Shown in pieces: positions 3,751-60,000 of a stretch of DNA of 64,000 nucleotides (within the stretch, counting starts at the first letter, position 1; each line of letters starts with the position of its first letter). The DNA is taken from positions 731 through 64,730 of the forward strand of contig JAFGBT010000039.1 in the NCBI GenBank assembly GCA_016933025.1. Reading direction: 5' to 3'. The notes beneath the pieces were generated by a model. That model ran no database searches, was not told the origin of the DNA, and worked only from the letters and a program-made list of their open reading frames with translations. The position numbers were made by a program, and so were the translations under genes. The stretch comes from Spirochaetota bacterium. Lineage in GTDB: Bacteria; Spirochaetota; UBA4802; UBA5550.

Positions 3751-3773
3751 CTTTCAGTTATGAGGGATATCCC

Positions 3774-4340: not shown

Positions 4341-4630
4341 GCGTGCATTCCTCCTTTTATATCGTATTTTCCCTGATGATTATCCGTCTTTCTTACCATA
4401 ATAATAAACATAGAATTCCGGCATTTGTCAATAGAATATTTCAATAACCATGACAAATAACGCCCCTGATGAAAGCACGAATCATTAACTACGTCCCGAC
4501 GCGGGACAGTAATGTTCTTGACAGCGGCCATTTTTATTACTACTGTCATGAGGGCCTGATTGAAATTAACTGAATCTCAGGTGAATGTTCCGGCGCGACC
4601 CGGAATCCCGGCCCGTTATGGAGGCGCGTC

Positions 4631-6022: not shown

Positions 6023-6079
6023 CGGAGCGCCCGGAAACGGAAGTCTCCGGAGATAACTATCACACATGGTATATTCAGA

Positions 6080-7069
6080 ATGAAAATTCTCGATATCATC
6101 ACGAGGGGGTTCCCCGTATGGGTACTGGCCGCGAGCATCGTCTCTCTGGCGTATCCCCCCTCGTTCACCTGGTTCTCGGGCCGCATGATCACCGTCGGTC
6201 TCGGCATGATCATGCTCGGCATGGGGATTACCCTCACCGTCGAAGATTTCAGGCGGGTCATACGCTTCCCGGGCCGCGTCATCGTCGGCGTCGCCTTCCA
6301 GTACGGGGTGATGCCGGCGCTCGGCTGGACCCTCGCCGCCCTCTACGACCTGCCCGTTCCACTGGCGGTCGGGCTGATCCTGGTGGCCTCCTGTCCCGGC
6401 GGCACCGCCTCGAACGTCATATCCTTCCTGGCCAAGGCCGACGTTCCCCTGTCCGTGACCATGACGAGCGTGTCGACCATGATCGCGATCGGCGCCACTC
6501 CGCTTCTTACATCGATTTATGCCGGGAGCAGGATTGACGTTCCGGCCATGGGGCTTTTTCTTTCGACGGTACAGGTGATCCTGCTGCCGGTGACGGCGGG
6601 CGTCATCATGAACAGGTACCTGCCGCGCGTCACCAGGAAGGTCCTTCCGGTCATGCCGCTGGTGGCGGTCATATTCATCACGCTCATCGTGGCCTCAATT
6701 ATCGGCGCGGGGAGGGATGAAATCCTGAGGTCCGGCTGGCGGCTCATCGCCGCGGTATTCTCGCTTCACGCGGGAGGATTTTTCTTCGGTTACACGGCCG
6801 CATTTCTCATCACGCGCGATGTCATCGCCGCACGAACCATTTCAATCGAGGTGGGGATGCAGAACTCCGGACTCGGCGTCGTTCTCGCGCGGAGCAATTT
6901 TTCCAACCCGGTCACCGCGATACCGAGCGCCATATCGAGCCTTTTTCACTCGCTTATCGCAAGCGTTCTCGCCGCATGGTGGAAGCGCTCTGCGGACAGG
7001 CACAGGGCGGACGCGGCAGAAACGCCACTCTCGGATCACAGCCCGGGTCGGGAAGGAGATATGGCCTGA
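6080..7069 (+). CDS. Bile acid:sodium symporter (BASS/SBF) family transporter.
   Basis: About 9-10 TM helices. Characteristic BASS motifs are present (GLILVASCPGGTASNV, IEVGMQNSGLGVVLA). Confidence 0.7.
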   Translation: MKILDIITRGFPVWVLAASIVSLAYPPSFTWFSGRMITVGLGMIMLGMGITLTVEDFRRVIRFPGRVIVGVAFQYGVMPALGWTLAALYDLPVPLAVGLILVASCPGGTASNVISFLAKADVPLSVTMTSVSTMIAIGATPLLTSIYAGSRIDVPAMGLFLSTVQVILLPVTAGVIMNRYLPRVTRKVLPVMPLVAVIFITLIVASIIGAGRDEILRSGWRLIAAVFSLHAGGFFFGYTAAFLITRDVIAARTISIEVGMQNSGLGVVLARSNFSNPVTAIPSAISSLFHSLIASVLAAWWKRSADRHRADAAETPLSDHSPGREGDMA

Positions 7070-7109
7070 AATGCCGAGGCGAATAGAATAACATGACAGG
7101 ATAAAGAGC

Positions 7110-8444
7110 CTATGCTGGCGCTGATTCCATGGCCGCTTTTTCACGCTTTTTCTTCTTGTAATCCCGGATCCGGTAACCCACGACCATGTTAAGATAGAGC
7201 TTGATGAGCGATCTGTCCTTGAAGACCCATCTCATCAGCATCCGTATGATATTCAAGACATTGAAGAACTCATCCAATATTTCCTTGCGCGCCGCGATGG
7301 CCTCTTCCCGCGTGAAATGCTTGAACTGTATTGACGGCACGTCTTTCCGCACCTCGTCCCAGTTTCGGCTTGCCCTCCCTTCTTTTTCAAGGCCGTCAAA
7401 AAACGGCGTACCCGGCCAGGCTGTCGTGAAAAACACCCTGGGGAAATCCGCTTTCGATTTTTTCAACGCCTTGATCAATTTTTGCGGGTAATCCTTGTCG
7501 TGGGAATCGAGCCCGATGATAGTCGACGCTATAACGGCGATATTGTTGTCGTGAAGTTTGCGCACGATTTCCCCGTAATCGAGCCCTATGTTATGGTTTT
7601 TCCTGACGAGCTTCAGGCTTTCTTCATCAATGGCCTCGAATCCCACGAACACGGCCCTGCACCCGGCACGATACATCAATTTCATTAATTCAGGATCGGA
7701 CGCGATGGTGGTGGTGGTCTGGCATCCCCACACGAACTTGTAGTTCTTCCGAATCATCTTTTCAAGCAGCGCCTTCCTGTCGTTCCTTTCCTCCTCCGAA
7801 TAACCTATGAAATTTTCGTCAACCAGTATCACGGCATAGCTGTCCTTCACGGCGTCGAAATCCTCGATGACCGTGTCATGGGGAATGGTCCGGTACTTTC
7901 TCTGCTTGAACACCGTGAGATAGCAGAACGAGCAGCTGAACGGGCAGCCGCGCGACGTGAGCACCGAAGGGAACTGGTAATTGGGATGACACATGTCGCG
8001 CCGCGGAATCCCCAGGTCATCCAGCGGCACGTCCATCGGGCCGAAATACGTCTGCTTGATCTTTCCTTTTTCGAAGTCTCCGAGAAAACTCTTCCAGGGC
8101 CCCTCGCCTTCGCCGACGCAGACACTGGTATAATGCTCGAGCGCTTCTTCCGGCAGGGCCGTTACGTGCGCGCCGCCGATTATAGTTGTTATTCCCCTCT
8201 TCTTCAGGCGGTCGCCGAGATGGTACGCCCGGGTAATCTCCGGTGTTATGGCCGCAACGGCCACGAGGTCGGCCTCCACGGCGTCCGGATCGAACACATC
8301 ACCGCCGTATTCGTCATAAAGGGTAAGCGAATAATTATCAGGCGTATGCCGCGCGAGGTAGCCGAGGGCAAGGGGATTATACAGCATGATCTCGCCCATA
8401 TGGACATTTTCCCTTGAAGGATATACCATTGCCACTTTTATCAT
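7110..8444 (-). CDS. B12-binding-domain radical SAM protein (class B radical SAM).
   Basis: The N-terminus is a cobalamin-binding Rossmann-like region. The radical SAM cluster motif CPFSCSFC (CxxxCxxC) is at ~aa 165. Length 444 aa. Confidence 0.75.
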   Translation of the reverse strand: MIKVAMVYPSRENVHMGEIMLYNPLALGYLARHTPDNYSLTLYDEYGGDVFDPDAVEADLVAVAAITPEITRAYHLGDRLKKRGITTIIGGAHVTALPEEALEHYTSVCVGEGEGPWKSFLGDFEKGKIKQTYFGPMDVPLDDLGIPRRDMCHPNYQFPSVLTSRGCPFSCSFCYLTVFKQRKYRTIPHDTVIEDFDAVKDSYAVILVDENFIGYSEEERNDRKALLEKMIRKNYKFVWGCQTTTTIASDPELMKLMYRAGCRAVFVGFEAIDEESLKLVRKNHNIGLDYGEIVRKLHDNNIAVIASTIIGLDSHDKDYPQKLIKALKKSKADFPRVFFTTAWPGTPFFDGLEKEGRASRNWDEVRKDVPSIQFKHFTREEAIAARKEILDEFFNVLNIIRMLMRWVFKDRSLIKLYLNMVVGYRIRDYKKKKREKAAMESAPA

Positions 8445-8631
8445 TATTATCTCCTGTCGAATTATCGGATTATGTTGCTCAGTCTGATAGCGAGGTATCT
8501 CTGCTCTCTAACAGCTGAAAAAAACGGATTGGCGAGATTTATATCACAATTAGATTTATGTCAATATAATTACGTGAGTCAGCTAATTATACGAATATTT
8601 ATTTCAATGTAGATGAGGTGCGAAAACTAAT

Positions 8632-8870
8632 ATGCGTAAAAAAGATAAAGAAATAACGGATTTCAGCAAAATCGAAAAAATAATCCGCACAGCTGCCATA
8701 TACCGCCTTGGCATGAGCGATGACGGTATGCCGTATATCGTTCCGCTCAATTTCTGATACAGAGAGAGGAATCTTTATTTCCATACAGGCCGGCGGGGGA
8801 AAAAATCGACATCCTGGCGGGGAATAATTTCGATAATAATTTCGCCGGCATGAGCCGAATCAAATAGTAG
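8632..8870 (+). pseudogene. Frameshifted and truncated remnant of a PNPOx-like (pyridoxamine 5'-phosphate oxidase / NimA-family) flavin-binding protein.
   Basis: An ATG at 8632 opens a 42-codon frame, MRKKDKEITDFSKIEKIIRTAAIYRLGMSDDGMPYIVPLNF, then hits a TGA. That peptide matches the N-terminal signature of the PNPOx family. The +1 frame continues with ...SLFPYRPAGEKIDILAGNNFDNNFAG, which looks like the next conserved block. The remnant sits in a 450-bp AT-rich intergenic island. Confidence 0.4.
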
Positions 8871-8896
8871 AGATAAACTATCGGTAGGGCAACACA

Positions 8897-9211
8897 ATGA
8901 AAAAAAGCATCGTCGCCGCCGGGATGGCCGCGATTCTCCTCGGCATATTACTGATGCCGCGAAACGACGCCGGTTTCCATGCCGGGGAACCGGCTTTTGC
9001 CGCCTGTTCGGCCGTTGAAATCATGAACAACTGCTGCTTCAAGTTCCGCAAGTGCCTTGACGACGATTCCCTGGACGTCTCTCCGGAGGCCCGCGAGCAG
9101 AGGGCCGTCGGCGAATTCAGGCGCTGCCTTCGCTCCGATCTCGGATGTTCTGCGGAAATGACCGAGATGAAGTCGAAGGACGCACGGCAGATACGCGCGA
9201 TCTGCCGGTAG
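8897..9211 (+). CDS. Small secreted Cys-rich protein (hypothetical).
   Basis: Signal peptide MKKSIVAAGMAAILLGILLMP. The mature region is ~80 aa and contains eight Cys, including a CC pair. Confidence 0.4.
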   Translation: MKKSIVAAGMAAILLGILLMPRNDAGFHAGEPAFAACSAVEIMNNCCFKFRKCLDDDSLDVSPEAREQRAVGEFRRCLRSDLGCSAEMTEMKSKDARQIRAICR

Positions 9212-9419
9212 GCGCAGCCCGGGCAACGACGACCGGCCGCACAGCCGCACCCCAAAGCCCGAACACACAGGGAAACCAAAAAAGAGCGGTTTGGCCATAT
9301 ACCGGCCCGTGATCACAGCGATGATGAACGGTTTTAACCGGGGACAAATAAAAATACAACTGTATTGACAAAAAATATCGGCCGTATATCATTAACCTAA
9401 TTTTTCGCGAGGTAGTGTT

Positions 9420-28990: not shown

Positions 28991-30820
28991 ATGACGGATA
29001 TCGCTCTTGATAAAAAAACTGCCGGCTTCATTAAGTCATTTTATCTGAGATTCAACCTCTTCACCGAAGGATTCAGCTTCTTCATCGTCGTCCCCATCCT
29101 CCTGGTCTATGTATGGGCCAATATCCAGCTCACCCCGGAACAGCTTGTACTCTTCTTTAAAATCGTTCCGCCTGCATTCCTGTTCGGGATCGCTTTCGTG
29201 CTGGTGAACAACCTGATCGTACTCTGGCCGATTCTCCGATATTTCAAGAAATTTCTCGCAGGCAAAGAAGTCCCGGACGCCGAATACTTCAGGATAAAAA
29301 AGCGTTTTTTGAGACTGCCGTTCATACACGCGGCAGGCGCCTTCTTCCGCTGGCTCATTCTCCTTGGTAACGCCATTCTTCCCTTCTCGCTGCTCTCGGA
29401 CGCGACCAGGCCCCAGATTATCAACATGTGGATGGGGGCCGCACTCTGCTCGGTGCTCGGCATCGCCTCCTATTTCGCCATCACGGAAATCATGGTGCAG
29501 AACATGATAAGCATGGGAGTCTTCGCGAAAAAAATCGAGGGCGAGAAACCGCCCCGCGTCTCCCTGCGAATGAGACTCACCGTCCTGACCGGCTCATCGG
29601 TGCTCCTGACCGTGGCGGTCATTGTCACCTTTTTTTTTATAACCGTCGAGAATAACAGGATCGCCGACACCCTCATGTACGTCCGCATCGGCATCATGAT
29701 CTTCCTCGCGCTCGTGATCGGGGTCTTCAGCCCTCTCCTGGTCATCAAGACCCTGCGCGACAAGATAAACATCGTGGTCGAGCTTCTCAGCAAGATCGGC
29801 GCAGGCGACCTCCGGAGCGCCGCCCGCGAGGTGCCGATCCATGACGAGATCAGCGAAATCATTTTCGACGTCGACGACATGAAGGACAAGCTCCGGATGT
29901 CGCGGGACGAGCTGATGGACCTCAACATCAACCTGGAAAAGAAAGTCGCGGAAAGGACTCGCGAACTCAAGGCCGCGCTGGAAGAGATCGAGGCGGCCAA
30001 CAACGAGCTCGAAGCGATGAACGACAACCTGGTCCGCGCCAACCGCGAGCTCGAGGAGACGGAGCGTATACGCAAAAAGGACCTAACGCTTGCGGCCACC
30101 GTCCAGGCCGCATTTCTTCCCGGGAAAGCCCCTGTTTACGATCAGTACGATATCGCCTATATCTACAAGCCATGGGCGGAGGTATCCGGCGATTTTTTTG
30201 ATTTTTATGAAAATAACGCGACCCTGAAAGGCGTTGGCCTCTTCGACGTTTCTGGCCACGGGGTCTCCTCCGGCCTCCTCACTCTCATCACCAAGTCAAT
30301 CATCTCGAGAAATTTTTATTCAATGATAAAAGACAAAATCGTCACGGTCATGGAGCATATCAACAATCAGTTGATCGAGGAGATCGGCCAGATCGACAAC
30401 TACGTCACCGGCATCCTGCTCCGCTTCACGGACGATCGGTTTGAATACGTGAACTGCGCCCACCCGGATATCGTGTTCAGGTCCGGCTCTACCGGCAGGG
30501 TCGGGATGATCCTGGAAAAGCCGGGCGAAAGATACCGGAGCTTTTTCCTGGGCGTGCGCGACATGCAGCAGTCATTTCCATCGCTTTCGGTCAAGTTGGG
30601 CTCGGGTGACTGCCTCTTCCTCTACACCGACTGCATGATTGAAAACGAAAACAGCGGCGGCCAGGTCTTCGGTGAAACGCGGATTATGGAATCGCTGAGA
30701 AAAGCCCCGGAAGGAGACGCCAGGAGCATGCTTAATCATATCATCAATAATTTCAACGAATTCCACCGGGGAACCGAATTCAAGGACGATCTGACGGCAA
30801 TCCTGATAAAAAGAAGGTAG
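28991..30820 (+). CDS. Membrane sensor with a HAMP/coiled-coil region and a C-terminal PP2C-type (SpoIIE/RsbU-like) serine phosphatase domain.
   Basis: Multiple N-terminal TM helices. A coiled coil (LKAALEEIEAANNELEAMNDNLVRANRELEE). SpoIIE-type motifs (VSGDFFDF, GLFDVSGHGVSSGLL, LYTDCMIE). Confidence 0.7.
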   Translation: MTDIALDKKTAGFIKSFYLRFNLFTEGFSFFIVVPILLVYVWANIQLTPEQLVLFFKIVPPAFLFGIAFVLVNNLIVLWPILRYFKKFLAGKEVPDAEYFRIKKRFLRLPFIHAAGAFFRWLILLGNAILPFSLLSDATRPQIINMWMGAALCSVLGIASYFAITEIMVQNMISMGVFAKKIEGEKPPRVSLRMRLTVLTGSSVLLTVAVIVTFFFITVENNRIADTLMYVRIGIMIFLALVIGVFSPLLVIKTLRDKINIVVELLSKIGAGDLRSAAREVPIHDEISEIIFDVDDMKDKLRMSRDELMDLNINLEKKVAERTRELKAALEEIEAANNELEAMNDNLVRANRELEETERIRKKDLTLAATVQAAFLPGKAPVYDQYDIAYIYKPWAEVSGDFFDFYENNATLKGVGLFDVSGHGVSSGLLTLITKSIISRNFYSMIKDKIVTVMEHINNQLIEEIGQIDNYVTGILLRFTDDRFEYVNCAHPDIVFRSGSTGRVGMILEKPGERYRSFFLGVRDMQQSFPSLSVKLGSGDCLFLYTDCMIENENSGGQVFGETRIMESLRKAPEGDARSMLNHIINNFNEFHRGTEFKDDLTAILIKRR

Positions 30821-30831
30821 CGGCCGCTCGG

Positions 30832-31776
30832 CTACACGATCTCAATCCCTTTAAACAGCGACCTGATGCGTTCCATCTTCTCCCTGTCGATCCACGCGCG
30901 CATGGACCCGGTTTCGATGTCGGTCGAACGGCCGAGCATCTCGTTCTTTTCGAACCAGAGGGGATTGTTCTGGAGAAGCCCGATTTTTTTCACCCCCAGT
31001 TTCCGGAGAAAATCAGCAATTGCCGACAGGTTTTCTTCGGTGGCGGTGCAATCCGGTATGAGCGGTACACGCGGCAGAACCTCCGTGCCCCCCTGGCGGT
31101 ATTTCCGGTAGAGTTTTGCGAAATTTGCCAGAATAACATCATTAGGCCGGCCGCAAAGCCTCAGGTGTTCGGCGCCGTCGAAAAGCTTGATGTCAAAGTA
31201 GATCATGTCCAGGTGGGGATACAGCATCTTCATAAACGTGTCGCAGTTGAAGAACCCGCAGGTCTCAAGGAGCACGCTGACGCCCCGCTTTTTCAGGCGG
31301 GCGGCAAGCCGGGAGGCGAAGTCCATGAACAGCGTGGGCTCGCCCCCGGAAAGGGTGACGCCGCCGCCCGAGTTCTCGAAGAAGGGAACATCCTTCTCAA
31401 TTTCCCTCACGATTTCATCGACGCTCATCCGGTTCCCCACTGCGGACAGAGCGCCCGAAGGGCAGACTTCAGCGCACTTCAGGCAGAGGCTGCACCGCTC
31501 CCGATTGACGAACCCGGGCAAACCCCGGTCCAGGGCCTTTTCCGGGCAGGCGCCGACGCACGTATCGCACCCGACGCACTTCTTTTTATCGTAGGATAGT
31601 TCCCGCTCGCGGCGCTTGCTTTCCGGGTTGTGGCACCAGACGCAGGAGAGAGGACACCCCTTGAAGAAGACGACGGTCCTGATGCCGGGCCCGTCGTCCA
31701 GCGAATTGCCTTTTATTTCAAAAATCAACGGTTCATTTTTTGATTGATTCACTTCTGACTTGACTGTTCGATTCAT
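30832..31776 (-). CDS. Glycyl-radical-enzyme activating enzyme (radical SAM, PflA family) with an additional ferredoxin-like dicluster insert.
   Basis: The N-terminus carries GCPLSCVWCHNPE (CxxxCxxC). Two extra motifs, CVGCDTCVGACP and CSLCLKCAEVCP, follow. This layout is typical of activases for PFL2-class GREs. Confidence 0.8.
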   Translation of the reverse strand: MNRTVKSEVNQSKNEPLIFEIKGNSLDDGPGIRTVVFFKGCPLSCVWCHNPESKRRERELSYDKKKCVGCDTCVGACPEKALDRGLPGFVNRERCSLCLKCAEVCPSGALSAVGNRMSVDEIVREIEKDVPFFENSGGGVTLSGGEPTLFMDFASRLAARLKKRGVSVLLETCGFFNCDTFMKMLYPHLDMIYFDIKLFDGAEHLRLCGRPNDVILANFAKLYRKYRQGGTEVLPRVPLIPDCTATEENLSAIADFLRKLGVKKIGLLQNNPLWFEKNEMLGRSTDIETGSMRAWIDREKMERIRSLFKGIEIV

Positions 31777-31922
31777 ATTGTTAATCGTAAATGATTCTTA
31801 TGAAGTTATTTATATAATGGCGGCAGTATCCCGTGAGCAGGCGGCCAGGATGGCCGCCGGAGCCGATAGGACAGGATGTCCTATTTGCGGCGGGGCGAAC
31901 GGGATGCTGCCGCCATTAATAC

Positions 31923-34886
31923 TCATACCCTGTACTCCGCCCTCTCGATGAGCTCAATCTGCATCTCGCGGTTGAGGGTAACGAAATAGGCGTTGTAGCC
32001 CGATATGCGCACGATAAGGTTCCGGTACAGCTCCGGGTGCACCATGGCGTCGCGGAGAACCGCGGAAGAGACGACATTCATCTGCATCTGCATTCCGCCC
32101 AGGCCAAAATAGGTCTTCACATATGAGTGCATGGTGTCGACCATCTTCTCGTGGGTATCGCTCGCGCTCGGAACCACCTTGACGTTAAAGGCGATATTGT
32201 TGTTCATGTGCCGGGGGTTAAGCCGCGCGACGTCACGGATGTTGTCCAGCAGATTTTTCGAGGCGTTCGGCTCCGGCGTGAGGCCGGGTGTGAAGGCCTT
32301 GCCGGTCAGCCGGCCCGAGGGGAGCGCACCGGTCATGTTGCCGAAAATCACGTGGTTCGACATTGACCAGAAACCGGCCGTGTACCGGCCGCCCCGATAG
32401 TTCTTGTGCGCGTAATAGGCATCATGCGCGAATTTCGCCACGCGTCCGGCCATCGCCAGCGCCTCCTCGCTGCCCGAGCCGAATCGGGGCACCCTGCTCA
32501 TCACCAAGGCATGGAGCTCAGGGTAGCCCTGGTAGTTGGCGTCGATCGCCTTTTTAAATTCGGGGAGCGACACCTGCTTCTCGTCGTACACCAGCTTCTT
32601 GACCGCCATGAGCGAATCGGTGATGTCCGCCAGCCCGATGCATGCCGAGCCGGAGCTGTTGTACTTGGCCCCGCCCCGCGTCACGTCGAGGCCCTTCTTC
32701 ATTGGCCCGTCGATGAGCGCCGAGAGGAGCGGCGTGGGTCTGATATAGCCGTGTGCCTTCCCGAGCATGTTGTTCAGTTCAACGGAATTGTCGATAAGGA
32801 ACTGGAACTGCCTCGTGAAGGCGCGGTAGAATTCCTCGAAGGTCCGGAAGCTGCCGGACTCGATCGCGCCGGTCTCCGGGCCGACCTTCCAGTTCATGAG
32901 AGGATGCCTGCCGTTGTTGAGCGCCATCTCCAGCGCGGCCACCATGTTCATCATCATGCAGTTCGTGTGGCCGATGTGCTTGCCGGACAGGGTGGGCTCA
33001 ACGCACCCGGTTGCCGACCAGTTCCTCAGATCCTTTATATCGTACGCGAACTCTTTCAAAGAGGACATGACCGATTTGTCGTTGTGGAGCGACGGCGTTG
33101 CGGTCGTTATCAGGTTCACCTCGCAGAGCCGCCTCAGGTACGCGTCGCTGTTCACGCCGGGGCAGAAGCGGGCGTTGACGTTCGGGTCCCTGATGCTGAG
33201 CATCTCGGTGACCTTGAGGAATAGGTATGTCATGTCGCATACCGCGTCCTTCCCTTCCGGCGTGATACCGCCAAGCGTGATGGCCTGGTCCGACGAGCTG
33301 CCGCCAAAGAGGTAGTTTCCGATATCCGGCACCAGGGGAAGATGATCGGTGCACCGCATGTAGAAACAGCCGACCAGCTCGATAGCCTTCTTAATATACT
33401 CCTCGCGCTTCTTCGCGCTTTTCAATTTCGCCATGTCAGCCGCAAAATAGGGCTGGAACCACTGATCCATCCTTCCCAGGGAGAGGCCGGCGTTGGTGTT
33501 CTCCATGTGAAGACCCACCCATCCGATCCAGGCAGCGTTGACCGCCTCGTCGAGTGTTTCGCAGGGGCCCTCGGGCACACGGTCGCAGATAACGGCAAGC
33601 CTGAGGAGCTCCCCCTTCCTCACCGGGTCGGTCTCGCTCTGAGCCTCCGCGGCCGCCTGCTTCGAAAGGTTTTTCGCGTACGCGGCGAGCCCCTCCAGAC
33701 AGAGGATCATGGCCTCCAGAAGGGTACGCTTGTCCCGTTTCGATGCCGAGGTCTTCGCGATTTCACGGCGGATTTCCCCGATGTAGCCCTTTGTCCCTAT
33801 GCGCAGGAGCTTCGGGAAATCCGCGATCGTATGGGACAGGGCCACGCTCTTCCAGAGGAAGTAGACGGCGAACCGCTCGTCTATCCGCTGGCAGAGGGGA
33901 TTATCGTACTCCTCGCGGACCCACTCGCGGAAATTCCGGTGAGTCCAGTAGGGAAAGACGTCGCGATGAAGGACGCGCTTGGTATCACCAGAAATATTGT
34001 AGGGATTCAGCTCCCGGTCCGGCACGTTGTTGAGCTCGCCCCAGATCATAGTTCCGTGCGCGTCCGGATACAGGATGACGCCGATGTCCTTGGTGGTGGA
34101 GGTGCCGGCGACCAGGTCGCCCTTCCGGATGATCGGCCTGCGGTGTTCCATCATGTATTTATAGGCGCCCGCCTGCCTGAGCTCGGGGGGCCATGGCGTG
34201 CCGTCGGCCCTCTTTTCGAAACCATTCTCCTTGAACCACCGCGTCATCAGAAGCGCGCGCTCCGGGCATATTTCGGGCTTCGTGGTGAAATGCTGGTCGA
34301 GGAACTCCTTCAGCCGCGGAAAATCAGACAAGGAATAGCCCGATAGGTAGGGATCTGAAAGATATTTTACGCCCCGGTCCCTCGCCGGCGCCCTGAGCGC
34401 TCCATGGCGCGCGCTTTTTTCCGCGGGCGCGGGCCCGCTGTCGCCCTTCATCGAATCCGCCTGCTTCTGCCGCTCGTGTTCCTCGATCAGTTTCTTCTGC
34501 ATTCCGAGATGTTTCTTGTAGAGGAGGACTGAAACATAGTAGTTGAACAGGTTCGGGTAGGCGAAGTTGCCCTCGATGCGGAGCTTGCCTTTGGTCAGGA
34601 ACATGACCAGTTCGTTGGGGGGAAGATTGAGCGCTTCCATAACGGCTTTCCCGTCCCTGAAGATAAGGACCGAATCGACCCCTTCGGGTATAGAGCCCAT
34701 GACCGAGACCCTGCCGTCATTGAAGCGGACGGCGGCCATCACGCTCCTGTTCTCGGTACGGATCCCGATGCAAAAATTGGTCCACCCGTCAGCGCTCTTC
34801 AGGTACTGCCGTTTTGAGGGTATCCGGCTGTAAATAGCCGCCATCAAATGGAGCAGTATTTTGACCAGGATGTTCGTGAAATTCAT
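31923..34886 (-). CDS. Glycyl radical enzyme, PFL2 / dehydratase-lyase class, of unknown substrate. It carries an N-terminal SCP2-like extension of ~140 aa.
   Basis: C-terminal glycyl-radical motif RISGYNAYF. Thiyl-radical loop ATGCVEPT (single Cys followed by Glu, as in glycerol dehydratase/CutC/HypD types, not the CC of PFL). Length 987 aa. The N-terminal ~120 aa (…FLTKGKLRIEGNFAYPNLF…) resemble an SCP2 sterol-carrier fold. Confidence 0.85.
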   Translation of the reverse strand: MNFTNILVKILLHLMAAIYSRIPSKRQYLKSADGWTNFCIGIRTENRSVMAAVRFNDGRVSVMGSIPEGVDSVLIFRDGKAVMEALNLPPNELVMFLTKGKLRIEGNFAYPNLFNYYVSVLLYKKHLGMQKKLIEEHERQKQADSMKGDSGPAPAEKSARHGALRAPARDRGVKYLSDPYLSGYSLSDFPRLKEFLDQHFTTKPEICPERALLMTRWFKENGFEKRADGTPWPPELRQAGAYKYMMEHRRPIIRKGDLVAGTSTTKDIGVILYPDAHGTMIWGELNNVPDRELNPYNISGDTKRVLHRDVFPYWTHRNFREWVREEYDNPLCQRIDERFAVYFLWKSVALSHTIADFPKLLRIGTKGYIGEIRREIAKTSASKRDKRTLLEAMILCLEGLAAYAKNLSKQAAAEAQSETDPVRKGELLRLAVICDRVPEGPCETLDEAVNAAWIGWVGLHMENTNAGLSLGRMDQWFQPYFAADMAKLKSAKKREEYIKKAIELVGCFYMRCTDHLPLVPDIGNYLFGGSSSDQAITLGGITPEGKDAVCDMTYLFLKVTEMLSIRDPNVNARFCPGVNSDAYLRRLCEVNLITTATPSLHNDKSVMSSLKEFAYDIKDLRNWSATGCVEPTLSGKHIGHTNCMMMNMVAALEMALNNGRHPLMNWKVGPETGAIESGSFRTFEEFYRAFTRQFQFLIDNSVELNNMLGKAHGYIRPTPLLSALIDGPMKKGLDVTRGGAKYNSSGSACIGLADITDSLMAVKKLVYDEKQVSLPEFKKAIDANYQGYPELHALVMSRVPRFGSGSEEALAMAGRVAKFAHDAYYAHKNYRGGRYTAGFWSMSNHVIFGNMTGALPSGRLTGKAFTPGLTPEPNASKNLLDNIRDVARLNPRHMNNNIAFNVKVVPSASDTHEKMVDTMHSYVKTYFGLGGMQMQMNVVSSAVLRDAMVHPELYRNLIVRISGYNAYFVTLNREMQIELIERAEYRV

Positions 34887-35266: not shown

Positions 35267-35590
35267 ATGAAAATATTAAAAAAGGTAACGGCACTGGTTG
35301 TTGTCGGTTCCGTAATTATGATAGCCATCGCCTGTAAAAAGGGGAATTTATACGTCGATCAATTGGCTGTTCTGAGCAAAAGGGCGTGCGGATGCGCCGA
35401 TAAAAAATGCGCGGAAGATGAATTCAAGAATTTCATGGTCATTGTTGCCGACATGAAAAAAACCGACGCGAAAGTTACCAACGAAGAGGGCCAGAAGCTT
35501 GGCGAACATACGGCCACCATAATCAAATGCCTGATGACAAAAGGATTATCGCCCATAACCGTTCAGCAGGAGCTTCAAAAATTCAGATGA
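35267..35590 (+). CDS. Small lipoprotein (hypothetical).
   Basis: MKILKKVTALVVVGSVIMIAIACKKG is a signal peptide with lipobox. Length 107 aa. An intrinsic terminator follows. Confidence 0.45.
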   Translation: MKILKKVTALVVVGSVIMIAIACKKGNLYVDQLAVLSKRACGCADKKCAEDEFKNFMVIVADMKKTDAKVTNEEGQKLGEHTATIIKCLMTKGLSPITVQQELQKFR

Positions 35591-36194: not shown

Positions 36195-36277
36195 CCGCAT
36201 CGATCTGCGAAATGTCTGGACACACACGGGGGAGCCGGTATACTATTGCCGGCAACCCTAATAAGGCACACCCCCTC

Positions 36278-37474
36278 ATGAAGTATGATTTCGACAGGGT
36301 CATCGACCGCACCGGAACCGGCTCATTTAAATGGGACCTTGCGGACGCCCTATTCCATGGCAGCGGTCTCCTTCCCCTCTGGGTGGCCGACATGGACTTC
36401 GAATCGCCCCCCGAAGTAATCGAAGCACTTGTTATGAGGGCCCGTCACGGAATTTTCGGATACACTGCACCGGGCCCCGCATACCATGATGCCATCATCA
36501 AATGGTTCAGGAAGCGACATCGCTGGAAGATCAGGCCCGAATGGCTCCGGTTCGCCCCGGGGGTCGTCCCGGCGCTCAACCTTCTGGTGCAGGCGTTCAC
36601 GGCTCCCGGCGACAGCGTGATCGTACAGATGCCGGTCTACTATCCGTTCATGCGGGCAATCAGCCTCAACGGCAGGACCGTCCTCAACAATCCGCTGAAG
36701 CTCGAGAAGGGCCGTTACCGAATGGATCTCGAAGACCTCGAGCGCAAAGCGATGACACCGGGCGCCCGCCTTATCATACTCTGCAGTCCCCATAACCCTG
36801 TCGGAAGGGTATGGACGCGCGACGAGCTCGAGGGCCTCGGCTCAATCTGCCTGAAGCGCGGCATCCTTGTCGTGGCGGACGAGATACACTGCGACCTGAC
36901 CTATCAGGGCGTTCGCCATGTTCCCTTCGCGTCGATCAAAGAGGAATTCCTGATGAATTCCGTCACCTGCCTCTCGCCGAGCAAGACATTCAACCTGGCA
37001 GGCCTGCAGACCGCCGCACTGGTCATCGCCGGAGGGGAGCGGCGCGCAGGCTACGAAACGACCCTCAGCCGGCTGGGCCTCACCTGGCCCAATGTATTCG
37101 GGAGCGAGGCGCTCACCGCGGCGTATACCCACGGCGCCCCGTGGCTCGACGCCTTGATCGACTACCTGGCGGGAAATCTCGAGTTTCTGAAGCAATTCAT
37201 CGCGCGCAACATCCCCGGTGTGACCGTCATAGAACCGGAAGGGACATACCTGGTATGGCTCGACTTCAGGGGCCTCGATATGGACAACAACGCCCTCAAA
37301 CGGCTGATGATCGAAGACGCACGGGTGGCCCTCGATCACGGATTCATCTTCGGGTCACCGGAAGGGGACGGCTTCGAACGGATCAACATTGCCTGCCCCA
37401 GGGCAACGCTCGAGGAGGCTCTCAGACGGATAGAGCGGGCGCTAAAAAGCAGATTTCAGGAGGCGAAGCCATGA
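36278..37474 (+). CDS. PLP-dependent C-S lyase / aminotransferase class I, MalY/PatB-type cystathionine beta-lyase.
   Basis: The start MKYDFDRVIDRTGTGSFKWD is the hallmark MalY/PatB N-terminus. The PLP-lysine region is SPSKTFNLAGL. Length 398 aa. Confidence 0.75.
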   Translation: MKYDFDRVIDRTGTGSFKWDLADALFHGSGLLPLWVADMDFESPPEVIEALVMRARHGIFGYTAPGPAYHDAIIKWFRKRHRWKIRPEWLRFAPGVVPALNLLVQAFTAPGDSVIVQMPVYYPFMRAISLNGRTVLNNPLKLEKGRYRMDLEDLERKAMTPGARLIILCSPHNPVGRVWTRDELEGLGSICLKRGILVVADEIHCDLTYQGVRHVPFASIKEEFLMNSVTCLSPSKTFNLAGLQTAALVIAGGERRAGYETTLSRLGLTWPNVFGSEALTAAYTHGAPWLDALIDYLAGNLEFLKQFIARNIPGVTVIEPEGTYLVWLDFRGLDMDNNALKRLMIEDARVALDHGFIFGSPEGDGFERINIACPRATLEEALRRIERALKSRFQEAKP

Positions 37475-38289
37475 AACTCGCGGTAATAACCGGATGCGAC
37501 AGCGGCATCGGGAAGTCACTCGCGCGCGTCTTTTCCGAAAAAGGATTTAGAGTCATCATCTCCTACCTGGAAAGGAATCCCTTCGAGGGGGACAGGCGCA
37601 TCATCGCGAAGAAGCTGGATATTCGCGATGAAAAGCAGATCAACTCCTTCTCCGCCCTGGTGCACCGTTACTGCAGCGAGGGCCACGGCCTGGAATATTT
37701 CATCAACAACGCGGGGGTGGCGCTGGGCGGGCCCTTTGAAAACATTCCACTTGAAATATACCGGACCGTCATGGAGATAAATTTCATCGGCCTGGCGTCC
37801 CTCTCACAGAAAATCCTCCCCGCTCTGATCAGGAGCAGGGGGCGCCTTGTTGTGAACGGCTCAATGGCGGGACGGATCGCGCTTCCGTTTCTATCCCCGT
37901 ACACCGCGTCCAAGTTCGCTCTCGAGGGCTGGTGCGATTCGGTCAGGAGGGAGCTCAAGCCCCTCGGCGTCAGGACAATCCTTCTGGAGACAGCCGGGAT
38001 CGCCACGCCGATATGGGACAAGGGTCTGCAGCAGGACTATTCCTTCGCGGACAAAAAGTATGATGCGAGCATACGGCTGTTCAAGGAAAAATTCATCGCC
38101 GGCGGCAACCGGGGGATGGATACCGACCGCGCCGCAGCCCAGATCTTCAGGTTCATAACAGAAAAAAAACCGAAGGCGCGGTACATCGTCGCTCAAAACA
38201 GGCTGCTATCGTTTCTCGAGCTCATGATCCCCGGCAGGGTGCTCGATGCCCTGGTGGTGAAGATGTTTTCCATGCGGTACGAAGGATGA
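37471..38289 (+). CDS. Short-chain dehydrogenase/reductase (SDR) family oxidoreductase.
   Basis: The start MKLAVITGCDSGIGKSLA is the TGxxxGIG NAD(P)-binding motif. YTASK gives the catalytic YxxxK. There is a 4-bp ATGA overlap with the upstream lyase gene. Confidence 0.7.
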   Translation: MKLAVITGCDSGIGKSLARVFSEKGFRVIISYLERNPFEGDRRIIAKKLDIRDEKQINSFSALVHRYCSEGHGLEYFINNAGVALGGPFENIPLEIYRTVMEINFIGLASLSQKILPALIRSRGRLVVNGSMAGRIALPFLSPYTASKFALEGWCDSVRRELKPLGVRTILLETAGIATPIWDKGLQQDYSFADKKYDASIRLFKEKFIAGGNRGMDTDRAAAQIFRFITEKKPKARYIVAQNRLLSFLELMIPGRVLDALVVKMFSMRYEG

Positions 38290-38397: not shown

Positions 38398-39297
38398 TCA
38401 TTGCTTGTTGATCATGCTTCTCACGTAATCCATATCAAGAGGGAGAATTGATGCGTTCTCGTCAAGGCGCAGCGCAAGCGCCCCGTTCTGGCACTTCTCA
38501 ACGCAGAGCTCGCATCCCTGACAGCGGCGTCCATCATGCAATGGCCCCTCCTCCCCCATGGTATTGGCGCCGAAATGACATGCCTCAACGCATGCGCCGC
38601 ACTTTTTGCATTTATTCCTGTCGCGAATGAGCGAGTAGCCTGATTTCTCCGACATATACAGAGTTCGGTCTATCTTCCTCGTCAGGGCCGAGGCCCTGAG
38701 CGCCACGCAGGTGTCCGGGTGACAGTTGCATATGATGCCGGTACTCCCGCCCGTGGCGACCTTGAAGAAGGCCTGTGTGATATACCCCTTTGCGCGGAAG
38801 GATCGTATCAGGTCGAGCGCCTCCTGCTGGGTGACACGGCGGGGGTGATACTTCTTGCAGCGGTCGAGCCAGAAGGCGCCGGTTCCGCTGCCCACGAAAA
38901 TGCACGAGTTGATGTTCTCCGGTTTGTCTCCGAGCGTTTTCTTGCAGGGGCAGTCCATTACCACAATGAACTCCGGATCGGTGAAGAGGATTGTACGGGC
39001 ATATCTGAAGGGGATTATTTTCCTGTTTTCTTCCGAATCCAGGTGTATGTTCTCGTGAAGCTCAAAGATCTTCCTGGCGTCGCCGGCCGATAAAACCTTG
39101 CAATGGTACCTGTTGAATATAAAGCGCCCGAGGTATGTCAGCGGCTTCAACCAGGTGAGATGCCACAGTGGCTTCAGGACGATGCTGACAAATTTCACAT
39201 AGGGATAATACCAGGCAAAGTAAAGGTAGTTGTGAAGCGCCCGGTCCAATCGCCAGCCATGTTTCTTCAATAAGCGCTTTGTCGAATCCCTCACCAC
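38398..39297 (-). CDS. 4Fe-4S dicluster-domain-containing protein (hypothetical).
   Basis: The C-terminal part holds CKKCGACVEAC and CQGCELCVEKC ferredoxin motifs. There are additional Cys clusters (CPCKK, CNCHPDTC). It is the last gene of a three-gene minus-strand operon. Confidence 0.5.
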   Translation of the reverse strand: MVRDSTKRLLKKHGWRLDRALHNYLYFAWYYPYVKFVSIVLKPLWHLTWLKPLTYLGRFIFNRYHCKVLSAGDARKIFELHENIHLDSEENRKIIPFRYARTILFTDPEFIVVMDCPCKKTLGDKPENINSCIFVGSGTGAFWLDRCKKYHPRRVTQQEALDLIRSFRAKGYITQAFFKVATGGSTGIICNCHPDTCVALRASALTRKIDRTLYMSEKSGYSLIRDRNKCKKCGACVEACHFGANTMGEEGPLHDGRRCQGCELCVEKCQNGALALRLDENASILPLDMDYVRSMINKQ

Positions 39298-56335: not shown

Positions 56336-57088
56336 TCACCGTGTATATCTTTTCAATAATTGCACAACCCGCACCTTTTTGGCCTTCTCAGCGTAATCAA
56401 GAGGAGTCATGCCTTTCTCGTCCTTGATGGTGATGTCCGCGCCGTTCTTGAGCAACAGCTCAATTATTCTGATATTGCCGACAAAAACGGCTCTGTGAAG
56501 CGGGGTCTGTTTTTCCTTGTTTTGAATATTTACGCTGGCTCCTTTTTGCAATAAATAGCTTGTTTCCTGAAAAAGTTCACCAGAGATTGTTTTAAAAATT
56601 GGAGTATCTCCATAATCAAAATCTACAGAATCAATACATACATCGAGATCTTCAATTACAAATCTGATTATATTAAATAACCTAGAATAAACAGCAGTAA
56701 ATAACAATTGGCTATCACAACTTCTATTAACGTAAACACCTTGACTAATCAAATATAAAATTATTTTTATATTACCATTATAAATAGCATCGCTTAAACA
56801 ATGTCTATTTTCATTTTCTGTATCAATCCTTGCTCCATTTATAATAAGCAATTTAACGATTTCAAGGCTGCTACTTTTTATAGCACCATTTAAAGGATAT
56901 TCGTCATGTGATAAAAATTGCTTTTTATAATTAACATCAACCCCTTGATTAATCAATAATAATACTCTTTGATACTCTCCTTTCATAGATGCCTGGTACA
57001 ACTGATCACCCAAATCTTCAACTATATTTGTTGTTGCACAACCAGACGAGAAAATCAATAATATTAAAAATATAATTATAATTCTCAT
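56336..57088 (-). CDS. Ankyrin-repeat lipoprotein. It is the probable cognate immunity protein of the upstream RHS toxin.
   Basis: Signal peptide with lipobox (LIFSSGCATT). At least 4-5 ANK repeats (…TPLHRAVFVGNIRIIELLLKNGADITIKDEKGMTPLDYA…). The start ATG overlaps the RHS stop as ATGA. GC content is very low compared with the rest of the window. Confidence 0.7.
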   Translation of the reverse strand: MRIIIIFLILLIFSSGCATTNIVEDLGDQLYQASMKGEYQRVLLLINQGVDVNYKKQFLSHDEYPLNGAIKSSSLEIVKLLIINGARIDTENENRHCLSDAIYNGNIKIILYLISQGVYVNRSCDSQLLFTAVYSRLFNIIRFVIEDLDVCIDSVDFDYGDTPIFKTISGELFQETSYLLQKGASVNIQNKEKQTPLHRAVFVGNIRIIELLLKNGADITIKDEKGMTPLDYAEKAKKVRVVQLLKRYTR

Positions 57089-60000
57089 TTATCTTTTGAC
57101 CTATTATATTCTTCTCTTACTTTACTTCTGTCATAAGGTTTTACACCCGGTATCAACTTACCATTAATATCATACATTTTCTGATTTTCAAATATCTGAT
57201 CTGGTAATGCTAAAAATGATTTACCAAGTTTAGCATTCTTGTCATCCTCATACGCCCAGGCGATAACCTCGGTACATACCATTTTATTATCGCCATCCTT
57301 AAACTTCCCTAAATTTCTCTTCCAGTTTTTACTATTGGTGAGCAAACTCCATGCGCCGCCGACCGCTCCAAGAAGCCCCTTCATGTCATATTCAAAATTG
57401 TCTTCTTTCATTGCCTTATCTAGCTTATTGATAGCATTCTTTCCTTCCTCTACCGTACCAACCCTGAAAAATCTATACTGGTCTATAGTTTCATATTTAT
57501 TATATTTCGTCCATTTTTCTTTTTTTGGATCCCATTCCATGCTTCCTTCCTTGCTAATAATCCTTTCCACGATTTTATCACCCTGGATATCAGTAACCAT
57601 CACTCCGACGACTTGGCCTTTATACTTAAACGACTGTTGCACCATTGCTGAATGGCCGAGCCTGCAACTGGTCTGCGAAAGTATCCTGTTTGATACTTCC
57701 GCGCCAAGCTTCGCTACAACACCCGCCTTTTCAGCCATTATCTGATCTTTAGGGCTTTCGGCCCGCATCATAAAATCCCCGATCCTCGCCTCCTCCATGC
57801 CTATCTCAACATGCCCGGTCGGGTCCTTGTACATTATCGGGTTGTTGGAGCAGTACGCGTACCGGTTCCAGGCCTGTGTGTTCGTCTCGCTCGATATAAC
57901 GGTGTCGGCCGTCACAAAACGCGCGATGTCCGGGTCGTAGTGGCGCGCGTTATAGAAGTAGTACCCGGTCTCCCGGTCCAGCTCCTGGCTGTTGTACTTG
58001 GGCGCGTGGCCCCGGTCGCCCTCGGTGATCCATGTCCCGCCGAAGGGGAGGTACTCGTTCTGCGACACGATCATCCCCGCATGGTCGAGCGTGACGGTGA
58101 CGCTGTCGACCTGGTCCGTCAGGTAGTGGAACGGCCTCCCGCCGGGAGCGACCGCGGCAATCCTCACGCCGTTCAGGTATATATGGCTGACCCGCATAGA
58201 GGACCCTGGTATTGGACGGCCGTCAATATCTTTTTGTGTCTCCAGGGTGAGGTACATGGAGGGCGATATCGTCTCCACGCTCCGGGCCTCGCTGCCGGCC
58301 GGCCTCGCGGAGACCTTGCGCACCCTGAACCCCTGTTCGTCGTAATCGTACCGGCCGAGCTCCTCGCCGGTGTCCGGGTCGGTCGCCAGGCGGATGCGGT
58401 TCAGGGAATCGTACGCCATCCGCTTTGCCATGTTTTTCTCCCGGTCGCGCTGGTATGTCATGTTCCCGGCCGCGTCGTATTCCATCTCGTAGCGTCCGGG
58501 GAGCCGCGCCGTGCCTATGGCGGTCGCTGCATGGTTGGCGTACGTGTACTCCCACCGGTCGTCGACCGCGCCGGTCTCACTATCATACACCGTCCTGGCC
58601 GTGAGATTGCCGCCGGGCGAATACTCATACCCGATTTCAAATTTCTTTGATATAACGGCGCCTGTATCCGGCGCTTCTGCAATCCCCGGATTTAAATCCG
58701 GGGATTGCAGAAGCGTTTTATTATAATCACCCCGCGCGTGCGCCAGCCGGTTCAGGCCGTCATACTCGTAATCGTAGCGAATGAGCCCCTCGCACGCCCC
58801 TTCGGCGTCGACGTTCGGGGCGTTTTCGATGGCGGCGATGCTGTCGTCCGGCCTGAATTCGTACGCGACGTCCTGCACCTTCCACTCCTCTCCATTGTGG
58901 CGCGCCACGGTCAGAAGGCGCTCAAGCCTCCCTCTGCGATCATACGTATAAGCGGTAACGGCATTGTTGCCGCGGCTCATTTCTATCATGCGCCCGAACT
59001 CGTTGTAGCGGACATTCTTCACGATATCCAGCGTCTCGCCGCCATTGTCGGCCGTGATTGATGTCACGCCCATGGCGCAGCGGCCGTACGAGACGGCCAT
59101 GCCTTTTCTCGCGTGCGGCTCTCGCGGGTATTCGATCAATATTTTTCTTCCTAAAAGATCATATTGATATCGAGTTATATATCTCCCCTCTCCCCGTGGG
59201 AGAGTGGTCGGGGGTGAGGGTTTCATAACTCGCGTCTCCTCCTTCACCCTCCCGATTTTATCATAGCAGAATTTCTTCGCCGACACCGGATCCTCGATGT
59301 ACGCCACCCTCCCGAGTGCGTTCGCGCATCCCCTGTACGAATCGTACACGTACCTGACCGTCCCTTCGTCTCCCGGAAGTCGCTTCACGGTCATCCGGCC
59401 CAGCCGGTCGTATTCAAAGGCCGTGACGCGGCCGAGTGCGTCGGTCACGGCGGCAGGCTCGCCGAAGGCGTTGTAATCGAGGCGCGCGTATCCGAGGTCC
59501 GGGTCGCTCGATTCCGTTACCCGGCCGAAGGCGTCGTAGCGCCATGCCGCCACGTTGCTGCCGGATGTGTCCTTCACGCCGGGCGCGAACAGCGACGCGT
59601 CCACTTCCCGTAGCGAGGGGCTTAAGCCCCTCGCTACGGGAAGATCAAATTTCTTCACCCTGTTGCCCGCGATATCATACACGAACCCGATCATCGCGCT
59701 CACAAACGCGCCGGCCCCTGAGCCTGTGCCGAGCGAAGCCGAGGCATCGCCGATGCCCGAATCCCCGGCATAGAGAACGAGCCCCCGTCCGTTCCTGACG
59801 ACCCGCTTGGACCTTTCGAGGCTGTTGGTTTCAATAACTTCCCATGGATCATGGTAGACAAACGACGTCGACGCCTCCGGCTCGCCGTCATACGCCGGGG
59901 GGAGGGTGATTTTTGACGGGCGTCCGGACCCGTCATACTCTGTCACGGTCGGGTTCTTCTCACGGAGGTGGGGGACGAACCGCCCGATCTCGTCATCGGC

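Follow-up and report, generated by a model that had tools for sequence, protein, structure and literature searches.

We analysed a 64,000-nucleotide (nt) stretch of contig JAFGBT010000039.1 from a Spirochaetota bacterium (hereafter, the window), which encodes a glycyl radical enzyme (GRE) of 987 amino acids (aa) next to its activase. The first 125 residues of this enzyme are predicted to form a domain of the SCP2 fold, an architecture that recurs, as a fusion, in a large family of proteins and, as separate GRE, SCP2 and activase genes, in operons of a related lineage. We consider the window enzyme to be an eliminase-type GRE with a new accessory module, whose substrate is probably lipid-like. 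The features of the gene, in coordinates of the window, are as follows:

31923..34886, minus strand: SCP2-GRE gene, 987 aa, ATG start, identical to NCBI MBN2160716.1
34512..34886, minus strand: SCP2-fold domain, residues 1-125 (AlphaFold2, Foldseek, profile and conservation)
34332..34511, minus strand: linker, residues 126-185 (variable alignment columns, low model confidence and composition)
32340..34313, minus strand: PFL-like ten-stranded barrel, residues 192-849 (PF02901, 560 bits)
33831..33833, minus strand: His352, aligned with His164 of glycerol dehydratase
33285..33305, minus strand: family-specific GGSSSDQ, residues 528-534, with Asp533 at the pocket position of glycerol dehydratase Tyr339
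32994..33008, minus strand: Cys loop GCVEP, residues 627-631, with Cys628 as thiyl-radical site and Glu630 as the CXE-motif glutamate (translation and alignment with 1r8w)
31980..32294, minus strand: glycyl radical domain, residues 865-969 (PF01228, 84 bits), with the radical site Gly963
31995-32009, minus strand: RISGY, residues 960-964 (translation of the exact codons)

N-terminal domain and catalytic core of the window enzyme

Scans of residues 1-200 against Pfam and NCBIfam returned no match, and PF02036, the SCP2 family of Pfam, was absent at E ≤ 10. We aligned 25 diverse full-length homologs (alignment A1) and built a profile from 23 N-terminal domains (N-domains). Across phyla, the N-domain is 33-70% identical to that of the window protein, and L12, W35, G58, V62, P67, G106 and N107 are invariant in the 25 homologs. 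Comparison of the profile to the PDB placed rabbit and human SCP2 in the top three positions, in register (query 53-114 vs. SCP2 49-108) and with a marginal E of ~0.06. PF02036 itself is matched by the N-domain of a divergent family member (P0231) and by a standalone homolog (P0265), with E ~0.003 and 18 bits vs. a gathering threshold of 21.3. The AlphaFold2 (AF2) model of the N-domain has a mean predicted local distance difference test score (pLDDT) of 87.7 and a predicted TM-score (pTM) of 0.77, and its Foldseek matches in the PDB are SCP2-fold throughout ranks 1-44, with a TM-score (TMt) of up to 0.70. The first of these is UbiJ-SCP2 (E = 2.7 × 10−7); the others include AF1534, SCP2 proteins of yeast, insect and human origin, the SCP2 domains that belong to the alkylsulfatases SdsA1 and Pisa1, and the SCP2-like part of MFE-2. 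Taken together, the profile, the models and the sub-threshold matches in relatives indicate that residues 1-125 are an SCP2 fold, as the initial annotation of the window had proposed. The same annotation had allowed for an N-terminus of the CutC type. The long CutC 9f3w (1150 aa), however, aligns with the window protein only from query residue 190 (query 190-983 vs. 9f3w 364-1145), its extension is not an SCP2 fold, and the two extensions do not align.

The SCP2 domain ends with an (E/K/R)-G-N motif (E105-G106-N107) and a C-terminal amphipathic helix. The linker continues as a helix running on from the domain, followed by a charged, variable stretch at residues ~140-165 and by ~15 conserved residues (from ~170) that lead into the barrel. 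In the full-length AF2 model (pTM 0.82), the SCP2 domain is confident and residues ~140-165 have a pLDDT of 52-56, which is consistent with a tethered module. Because GRE homology begins only at residue 192 in Pfam, and at ~186-225 across solved GREs, the extension comprises ~185 aa (the 125-aa domain and a ~60-aa linker), rather than the ~120 aa that had been thought to precede the GRE start. The annotated ATG is preceded, at a distance of 5 nt, by a Shine-Dalgarno sequence (GAGGTG), with an intergenic region of ~380 bp further upstream, and a scan for consensus promoters and terminators found nothing above chance. Because the N-domain is conserved across phyla, has a confident predicted fold and follows a proper ribosome-binding site, the extension is not a frame open by chance, a possibility that had been raised together with the gene call.

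The open reading frame (ORF) and its Pfam domains agree with the original assignment of a 987-aa GRE to this gene, and translation confirms the GCVEP loop, with its single Cys followed by Glu, and the RISGY motif. Among 89 family members from the loci that we fetched, CVE and ISGYN are present in all 89 and SSSD in 86; because it is invariant in these proteins, RISGY is a family signature. His352 and GGSSSDQ are invariant in alignment A1. In the alignment with solved enzymes, Cys628 corresponds to C433 of glycerol dehydratase (GD), C438 of propanediol dehydratase and C434 of HypD, and Glu630 corresponds to GD E435. The CXE motif marks GRE 1,2-eliminases (C-O, C-N and C-S) and isomerases, in which the Glu hydrogen-bonds the substrate hydroxyl; in GD, Glu435 deprotonates the C1 hydroxyl and His164 protonates the leaving C2 hydroxyl (PMC13450708). 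The structures nearest to the full-length model by Foldseek are propanediol and glycerol dehydratases, CutC, Archaeoglobus fulgidus PFL2 and HypD (25-29% identity), whereas X-succinate synthases follow at ranks 46-49 (20-22% identity). Sequence scores against GREs in the PDB give the same picture, with 340-384 bits for eliminases vs. 189-219 bits for X-succinate synthases.

The window enzyme reaches the cutoff of none of the named families with which it was compared. Its core is at most 29% identical to any solved GRE, and no NCBIfam equivalog among HypD, CutC, HpsG, HpfG, IAD, HPAD and PFL was reached (HypD, 403 vs. 1100 bits; CutC, 384 vs. 1050 bits); the top NCBIfam score, for the subfamily TIGR01774, was also below its cutoff (489 vs. 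678 bits). The residues that contact glycerol in GD, which we take from 1R9D to be S282, Y339, D447 and Y640, are not kept in the alignment with 1r8w, where they are replaced by G467, D533, N642 (in HTN) and W840 (in GFWSMSNH), respectively. Judged from these alignments, the window enzyme has the catalytic machinery of a CXE eliminase, including a His of the dehydratase type, combined with a specificity pocket that is new and strongly polar.

In public databases, members of the family (MBN2160716.1; UniProt A0A1F2WTS7) are called ‘formate acetyltransferase’ or ‘pyruvate formate lyase family protein’, and the protein identical to that of the window, MBN2160716.1, is named ‘formate acetyltransferase [Spirochaetota bacterium]’. 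This name is wrong, because the pyruvate formate-lyase (PFL) equivalog TIGR01255 scores only 112 bits vs. a cutoff of 994 in the NCBIfam scan and because the Cys loop holds a single Cys followed by Glu; the same observations agree with the earlier placement of the enzyme in the PFL2 class rather than among true PFLs. Because the family is uniformly mislabelled ‘formate acetyltransferase’, metabolic reconstructions misread it.

Fused and split systems and their gene neighbourhoods

Full-length relatives of the window protein form more than 120 protein-database clusters (63-82% identity, ~100% coverage, 985-1025 aa), with source labels of Spirochaetota, Chloroflexota, Actinomycetota, Deltaproteobacteria/Desulfobacterales, Desulfobacterota and one Promethearchaeota metagenome-assembled genome (MAG), the contig of which also encodes Arf/Ras-type GTPases. 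A full-length relative, at 61-82% identity, is encoded in at least 484 GTDB species representatives. The best 80 of these 484 genomes are all MAGs and belong to Smithella/Syntrophales, Desulfobacterales, Anoxymicrobiaceae/Geothermincolia, Spirochaetota, Chloroflexota, SAR324, Myxococcota and Bacillota. An exhaustive hidden Markov model (HMM) search with the SCP2 profile additionally identified divergent SCP2-GRE subfamilies, with 41-59% identity in the core and 22-35% in the N-domain. This conservation in sequence indicates that the fusion is real and selected, and neither an artefact nor a singleton.

Several members of the family depart from the common arrangement. Two canonical SCP2-GRE copies lie side by side before one activase in three loci (L043, positions 3257-9395; L018; L022), and in two others (L001 and L011) an SCP2-GRE with its own activase is followed by an unrelated 838-aa GRE of the RVTGY type (positions 12007-14523 in L001), also with its own activase. 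The catalytic Cys is missing from two divergent SCP2-GREs, P0216 and P0194, whose Cys loops read GDGGP and GAAAP, and P0194 has Ala in the column of the radical Gly (RVGAC); these proteins may no longer be active, as paralogues of the functional enzymes, or may be related to the aminoacyl radical enzymes described recently.

The exhaustive HMM search also returned proteins of ~140-180 aa that match the whole SCP2 profile, and for the two that we looked up, the coding gene is flanked on one side by the 3' end of a GRE gene of the PFL2 type and on the other by a TIGR02494 activase gene. (Short proteins from a profile search of a word-indexed database were rejected as standalone SCP2 homologs, the three that were checked being pieces of frameshifted SCP2-GRE genes.) Using an alignment of eight standalone homologs as query, we scanned metagenome contigs for such split systems and obtained 252 relatives and 80 loci (L091-L173). 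A GRE gene on the same strand ends no more than 600 nt upstream of the standalone SCP2 gene in 59 of the 68 loci with room upstream, and an activase gene starts right after it in 65 of the 69 loci with room downstream. The split layout thus consists, on one strand, of a CXE-type GRE of ~826 aa, an SCP2 homolog of ~150 aa and the activase (e.g., L098:4445-7411 and L163:4533-7429). The 32 complete GREs of split systems have a median length of ~826 aa, lack the N-domain and contain CVE, with RVSGY in 31 of the 32. These enzymes are 36-44% identical to the core of the window enzyme (516-687 bits by blastp), whereas their best solved relatives reach 408-437 bits by phmmer, a different program whose scores are only roughly comparable with those of blastp; the split-system GREs are nearer to the window core than is any solved GRE. 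Among the standalone SCP2 homologs examined, none was found outside GRE operons. Because standalone homologs sit between GRE and activase (a Rosetta stone relationship), gene order and homology indicate that SCP2 is a dedicated partner of the GRE lineage of the window, whether fused or separate.

Two further proteins recur in the split systems. One of them (28 loci; e.g., L147:1910-4375 and L102:6669-8519) is 616-821 aa long, is internally duplicated, has no Pfam match and carries a repeated motif (...YQLNYRWP...DELVQIADGLYLGQL...); the other (18 loci; e.g., L147:8399-9457) is a DUF6765 protein.

For the fused systems, we clustered the ORFs of 87 loci and counted the genes in the neighbourhood. 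The activase adjoins the GRE, on either side, in 59 of the 87 loci, and in 44 the gene directly upstream, on the same strand, encodes a TetR regulator (TetR_N and TetR_C_33). Short-chain dehydrogenases/reductases (SDRs) are encoded in the operon in two forms, extended and of the epimerase/3β-HSD type in 16 loci, and classical in 18. The best matches of the extended SDR, all below cutoff, are lipid-handling enzymes, namely the hopanoid-associated HpnA, the 2-alkyl-3-oxoalkanoate reductase OleD and the sterol demethylase SdmB. Syntrophales loci contain a divergent aldehyde:ferredoxin oxidoreductase (AOR) with a ferredoxin, an AMP-forming ligase, an ADP-forming CoA ligase and an acyl-CoA dehydrogenase, and the order in one Smithella locus is TetR, FadB-like, thiolase, SDR, GRE and SDR. 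The neighbours in relatives fit an inducible catabolic module in which a carbonyl product is either reduced or oxidized into β-oxidation.

Proposed reaction and its alternatives

We propose that the window enzyme is an SCP2-assisted 1,2-eliminase of the CXE type, acting on the hydroxylated head of an amphiphilic substrate, with SCP2 as a tethered module for capture and delivery; we put the chances of this proposal at about even. The activase would install the radical at Gly963, from where it would move to Cys628, and the resulting thiyl radical would abstract a hydrogen from the hydroxyl-bearing carbon of the substrate. Glu630 would deprotonate the substrate hydroxyl and His352 would protonate the leaving group on the neighbouring carbon, the outcome being a 1,2-elimination, most likely a C-O dehydration, that gives an aldehyde or ketone. 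SCP2 would hold the hydrophobic tail of a lipid-like substrate with a polar hydroxylated head, drawn from a membrane or micelle, and would bring the head group to the active site, which is buried and unusually polar (GGSSSDQ, HTN, GFWSMSNH). In relatives, the carbonyl product may then pass to the SDR reductases, or to AOR followed by acyl-CoA activation and β-oxidation, under the control of TetR.

Eliminase chemistry is proposed because the CXE motif and the equivalent of GD His164 are conserved and because the nearest structures are those of propanediol and glycerol dehydratases, CutC and HypD. A hydrophobic substrate and a catabolic role are proposed because the SCP2 matches include SdsA1, Pisa1, MFE-2 and UbiJ and because TetR, SDR, AOR and β-oxidation genes are neighbours in relatives; the fused SCP2 suggests enzymes able to act on greasy, lipid-like molecules. 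The hint of a hydrophobic substrate in the initial annotation is therefore strengthened by the neighbourhoods in relatives and by the split operons, which fall short of proving it. In a broader and somewhat more tentative form of the proposal, SCP2 modules would be an unrecognized class of GRE partner, defining a large clade that performs radical 1,2-elimination on the polar heads of lipids or amphiphiles, for which we see a little less than an even chance.

Comparison with known GREs shows both what is shared and what is not. Glycerol and 1,2-propanediol dehydratases (1R8W/1R9D and 5I2A/5I2G) resemble the window enzyme in the barrel (TMt 0.86-0.87), the CXE motif, the His and the two-ferredoxin activase, but they are 27-29% identical to it, lack an SCP2 domain and act on C3 diols, and the window enzyme stays below the TIGR01774 cutoff. 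A. fulgidus PFL2 (2F3O), the best sequence match in the PDB (384 bits), is a CXE-type enzyme with a polar small-residue motif (SGQATNQ vs. GGSSSDQ in the window); it is uncharacterized and has been tied by some authors to long-chain hydrophobic substrates, but it is 776 aa long, lacks the SCP2 domain and aligns only from query residue 225, at ~29% identity. CutC (including 9F3W; 342 bits) is likewise a CXE-type eliminase with an N-terminal extension. Thr641, 13 residues after the catalytic Cys, presumably occupies the position of CutC Thr502, a correspondence taken from the offset in the CutC numbering and not from an alignment. In contrast to CutC systems, no microcompartment genes were seen near the window GRE, which also has the His general acid.

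Among proteins with an SCP2 fold, the alkylsulfatases SdsA1 and Pisa1, peroxisomal MFE-2 and SCPx thiolase combine SCP2 with an enzyme whose target is a long hydrophobic molecule, attacked at its polar end, and their SCP2 domains match the N-domain with Foldseek E values of 10−4 to 10−5. In these fusions, however, SCP2 is C-terminal, whereas it is N-terminal in the window protein, and the catalytic parts are unrelated (metallo-β-lactamase, dehydrogenase/hydratase, thiolase) and in no case radical-based. UbiJ, the SCP2 domain of which is the best structural match to the N-domain (TMt 0.67, 15-18% identity), is, like UbiT, a comparable case, a bacterial SCP2 module in which a hydrophobic ubiquinone intermediate is kept available to soluble enzymes. 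UbiJ is, however, a protein of its own within a complex of several enzymes and has neither a GRE nor a radical-SAM protein as partner, and there are no quinone-biosynthesis genes near the window cassette. The small subunits of other GREs (β and γ of BSS, β, γ and δ of MASS, and γ of HPAD) are, like the separate SCP2 of the split operons, extra polypeptides dedicated to a GRE, and some of them gate a hydrophobic substrate channel (PMC13450708); they are FeS- or Fe-binding proteins of unrelated folds, whereas SCP2 has neither a metal site nor a conserved Cys motif. Two described enzymes, the limonene GRE (PMC12583861) and the Atribacteria fumarate addition enzyme (PMC6776118), were considered as members of the family and rejected, both being multisubunit X-succinate synthases.

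Several observations weigh against an SCP2-assisted elimination on an amphiphile. The role of SCP2 in substrate delivery is drawn entirely by analogy. The window has no TetR, SDR or β-oxidation gene in an operon with the GRE; a nearby SDR gene of the window (37471-38289) fell into one cluster with those of the operons, but at no more than 30% identity its product was not accepted as a partner. The flanking genes vary between lineages, and the Syntrophales context may in part reflect lineage synteny. The recurrent partners in split systems are quite different from the neighbours of fused systems and have no informative annotation. The pocket residues are polar (Ser, Asp, Asn, His) and, because of this, the reacting part of the substrate would not be greasy. 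The CXE motif is common to GRE isomerases as well, so that it does not separate elimination from isomerization, and the active-site loops of the full-length AF2 model have a pLDDT below 50.

The polar pocket and the varied neighbours would also be compatible with an accessory or regulatory SCP2 (as channel gate, oligomerization or activase-docking element, or membrane tether) in an enzyme with a small, soluble, polar substrate like those of the characterized CXE-type GREs, an alternative that we consider unlikely but that has the best claim among those examined. The residues that replace the GD contacts (G467, D533, N642 and W840) are of the polar kind expected for a small hydroxylated or aminated substrate, the small subunits BSS β and MASS β gate the substrate channel and carry no substrate (PMC13450708), many lineages besides that of the window have no lipid-metabolism genes beside the cassette, and the split-system partners are unrelated to lipid metabolism. 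However, the studied SCP2-fold proteins among the structural matches (SCP2, UbiJ, SdsA1 and MFE-2) all bind lipids or hydrophobic tails, the long, partly disordered tether better suits a mobile capture domain than a fixed structural one, and lipid-type neighbours (TetR, HpnA/OleD-like SDR, AOR and β-oxidation) recur in several lineages.

An isomerase of the CXE type, like YbiW, PflD or HplG, would act on a lipid-linked head group, such as the sugar of a glycolipid or a cyclic ether, by cleaving a C-O or C-N bond in a ring or ether beside one of its hydroxyls, and would produce an isomeric ketone with no net elimination. The CXE motif and the first steps are the same in isomerases and eliminases (PMC13450708), the isomerases in the PDB (8id0, 8yjo, 8id7 and 7vua) match significantly and at a distance similar to that of the eliminases, and a polar pocket rich in Ser, Asp, Asn and His would suit a sugar-like head group. 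We nevertheless regard isomerization as improbable: the closest matches in both sequence and structure are dehydratases, the general acid of GD (His164) is conserved, the co-operonic reductases and AOR of relatives fit a released aldehyde or ketone, and nothing specific indicates a cyclic substrate.

Activation of a hydrocarbon by fumarate addition, as in X-succinate synthases, with SCP2 delivering an alkane or other hydrocarbon in place of the small subunits, appears to be rather more improbable still. A hydrocarbon would be a fitting ligand for SCP2, many carriers of the family are labelled as, or related to, hydrocarbon degraders (Smithella, Desulfatibacillum, Desulfococcus and Desulfosudis oleivorans), and whether the best PDB sequence match, A. 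fulgidus PFL2 (2f3o), functions as GD or as MASS is a matter of debate (PMC13450708). X-succinate synthases are, however, the distant matches described above (Foldseek ranks 46-49 and much lower bit scores than the eliminases), the FeS small subunits that define them (PMC6776118, PMC13450708) are absent, with a candidate for a conserved small Cys-rich ORF near the GRE in only 2 of 85 loci, the CXE Glu and the His, both conserved, have a role in hydroxyl chemistry, and carriers of the family include many taxa that are not known to use hydrocarbons. Finally, a true PFL with a mis-called start or a non-functional remnant as its extension, as the database name and the blindness of Pfam and NCBIfam to the N-terminal region might suggest, can be set aside as very improbable given the CXE loop with its single Cys in place of the PFL Cys-Cys pair, the low TIGR01255 score, the SCP2 fold predicted for an N-domain that is conserved across phyla and preceded by a ribosome-binding site, and the standalone homologs in GRE operons.

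The combination of SCP2 and GRE appears to be new. Full-text literature searches for ‘glycyl radical’ with SCP2, SCP-2 or sterol carrier protein returned nothing relevant, in agreement with the initial remark that the architecture is unlike that of characterized enzymes. To our knowledge, the substrates of all characterized PFL-like GREs are small soluble metabolites or, where FeS small subunits are present, hydrocarbons, and none of these enzymes has a lipid-carrier domain. A review of GREs from June 2026 does not mention SCP2 or a lipid-binding domain, and it names unannotated clades as the main gap of the field (PMC13450708). If SCP2-assisted elimination on amphiphiles is correct, no GRE known so far would have a lipid-like substrate apart from these, which would provide a new route of anaerobic lipid turnover, with widespread carriers in anoxic sediments and among syntrophs, sulfate reducers, spirochaetes and Asgard archaea. 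A built-in or separate SCP2 points to radical chemistry on amphiphiles under anoxia, conditions in which it is poorly understood how membrane lipids, ether lipids, hopanoid polyols and long-chain diols are broken down in their polar parts. With SCP2, the architecture of GREs gains an accessory module of a new type, in sequences that are public but misnamed, and the two-gene cassette, with a separable domain and clear catalytic residues, is a concrete target.

Activase, spacer and other genes of the window

The features that adjoin the SCP2-GRE gene in the window are the following:

30832..31776, minus strand: GRE activase, 314 aa (TIGR02494, 288 bits vs. a cutoff of 174; Pfam Radical_SAM and Fer4)
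31798..31933, no strand assigned: three-way hairpin in the GRE-activase spacer (fold z-score of about −8 on both strands)
28991-30820, plus strand: SpoIIE/PP2C protein, convergent, shared only with other Spirochaetota
35267-35590, plus strand: lipobox ORF, 107 aa, divergent, shared with one relative

The activase is encoded 146 bp downstream of the GRE on the same strand, and contains the radical-SAM motif C41x3C45x2C48 and two CxxCxxCxxxC motifs (C67/70/73/77 and C95/98/101/105). The TIGR02494 score and these motifs bear out the initial identification of an adjacent PFL2-class activase with a two-ferredoxin insert. The hairpin of ~105 nt, in which an outer stem of ~20 bp encloses two 8-bp hairpins, fills nearly the whole 146-bp spacer and occurs once in the window. 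On the plus strand, i.e., antisense to the operon, it is a borderline match to Rfam TwoAYGGAY (RF01731; 45 bits vs. a gathering threshold of 43), with loops CA-GGAUG, each AYGGAY loop being one base short. We did not adopt this assignment, the match being borderline, antisense and absent from relatives: the hairpin was not found in 7 related loci examined, and one relative (L010) has a different, GC-rich hairpin at the same place. The hairpin could be an mRNA stabilizer, an attenuator or a processing site that sets the ratio of GRE to activase.

The PP2C protein and the small lipoprotein-like ORF flank the GRE and its activase as initially described, but they are not functionally linked to the cassette; both are lineage-specific in the neighbourhood comparison, and they were rejected as partners. 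Upstream of the GRE, a 492-aa ORF on the plus strand (36811-38289) overlaps a class I/II aminotransferase gene (36212-37474, plus strand). Only the C-terminal 272 aa of this ORF, from a Met at ~37471, correspond to a classical SDR, and the SDR gene probably starts at this Met. Next to it, on the minus strand (38398-39297), a protein of 299 aa combines a Cys-rich N-terminal part with a C-terminal 2x[4Fe-4S] ferredoxin domain. Distant homologs of this protein (28% identity over 230 aa) are encoded near the cassette in 6 other loci, of Actinomycetota and Desulfobacterales, and in 3 of these loci the TetR gene has the homolog as its immediate upstream neighbour, on the opposite strand; the ferredoxin-domain protein could be the electron donor for the activase. 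Between 56000 and 64000, the GC content of the window changes sharply, from 0.40 (56-58 kb) to 0.61-0.66 (58-64 kb), and an ORF of 2302 aa on the minus strand (57085-63993) reaches nearly to the end of the window.

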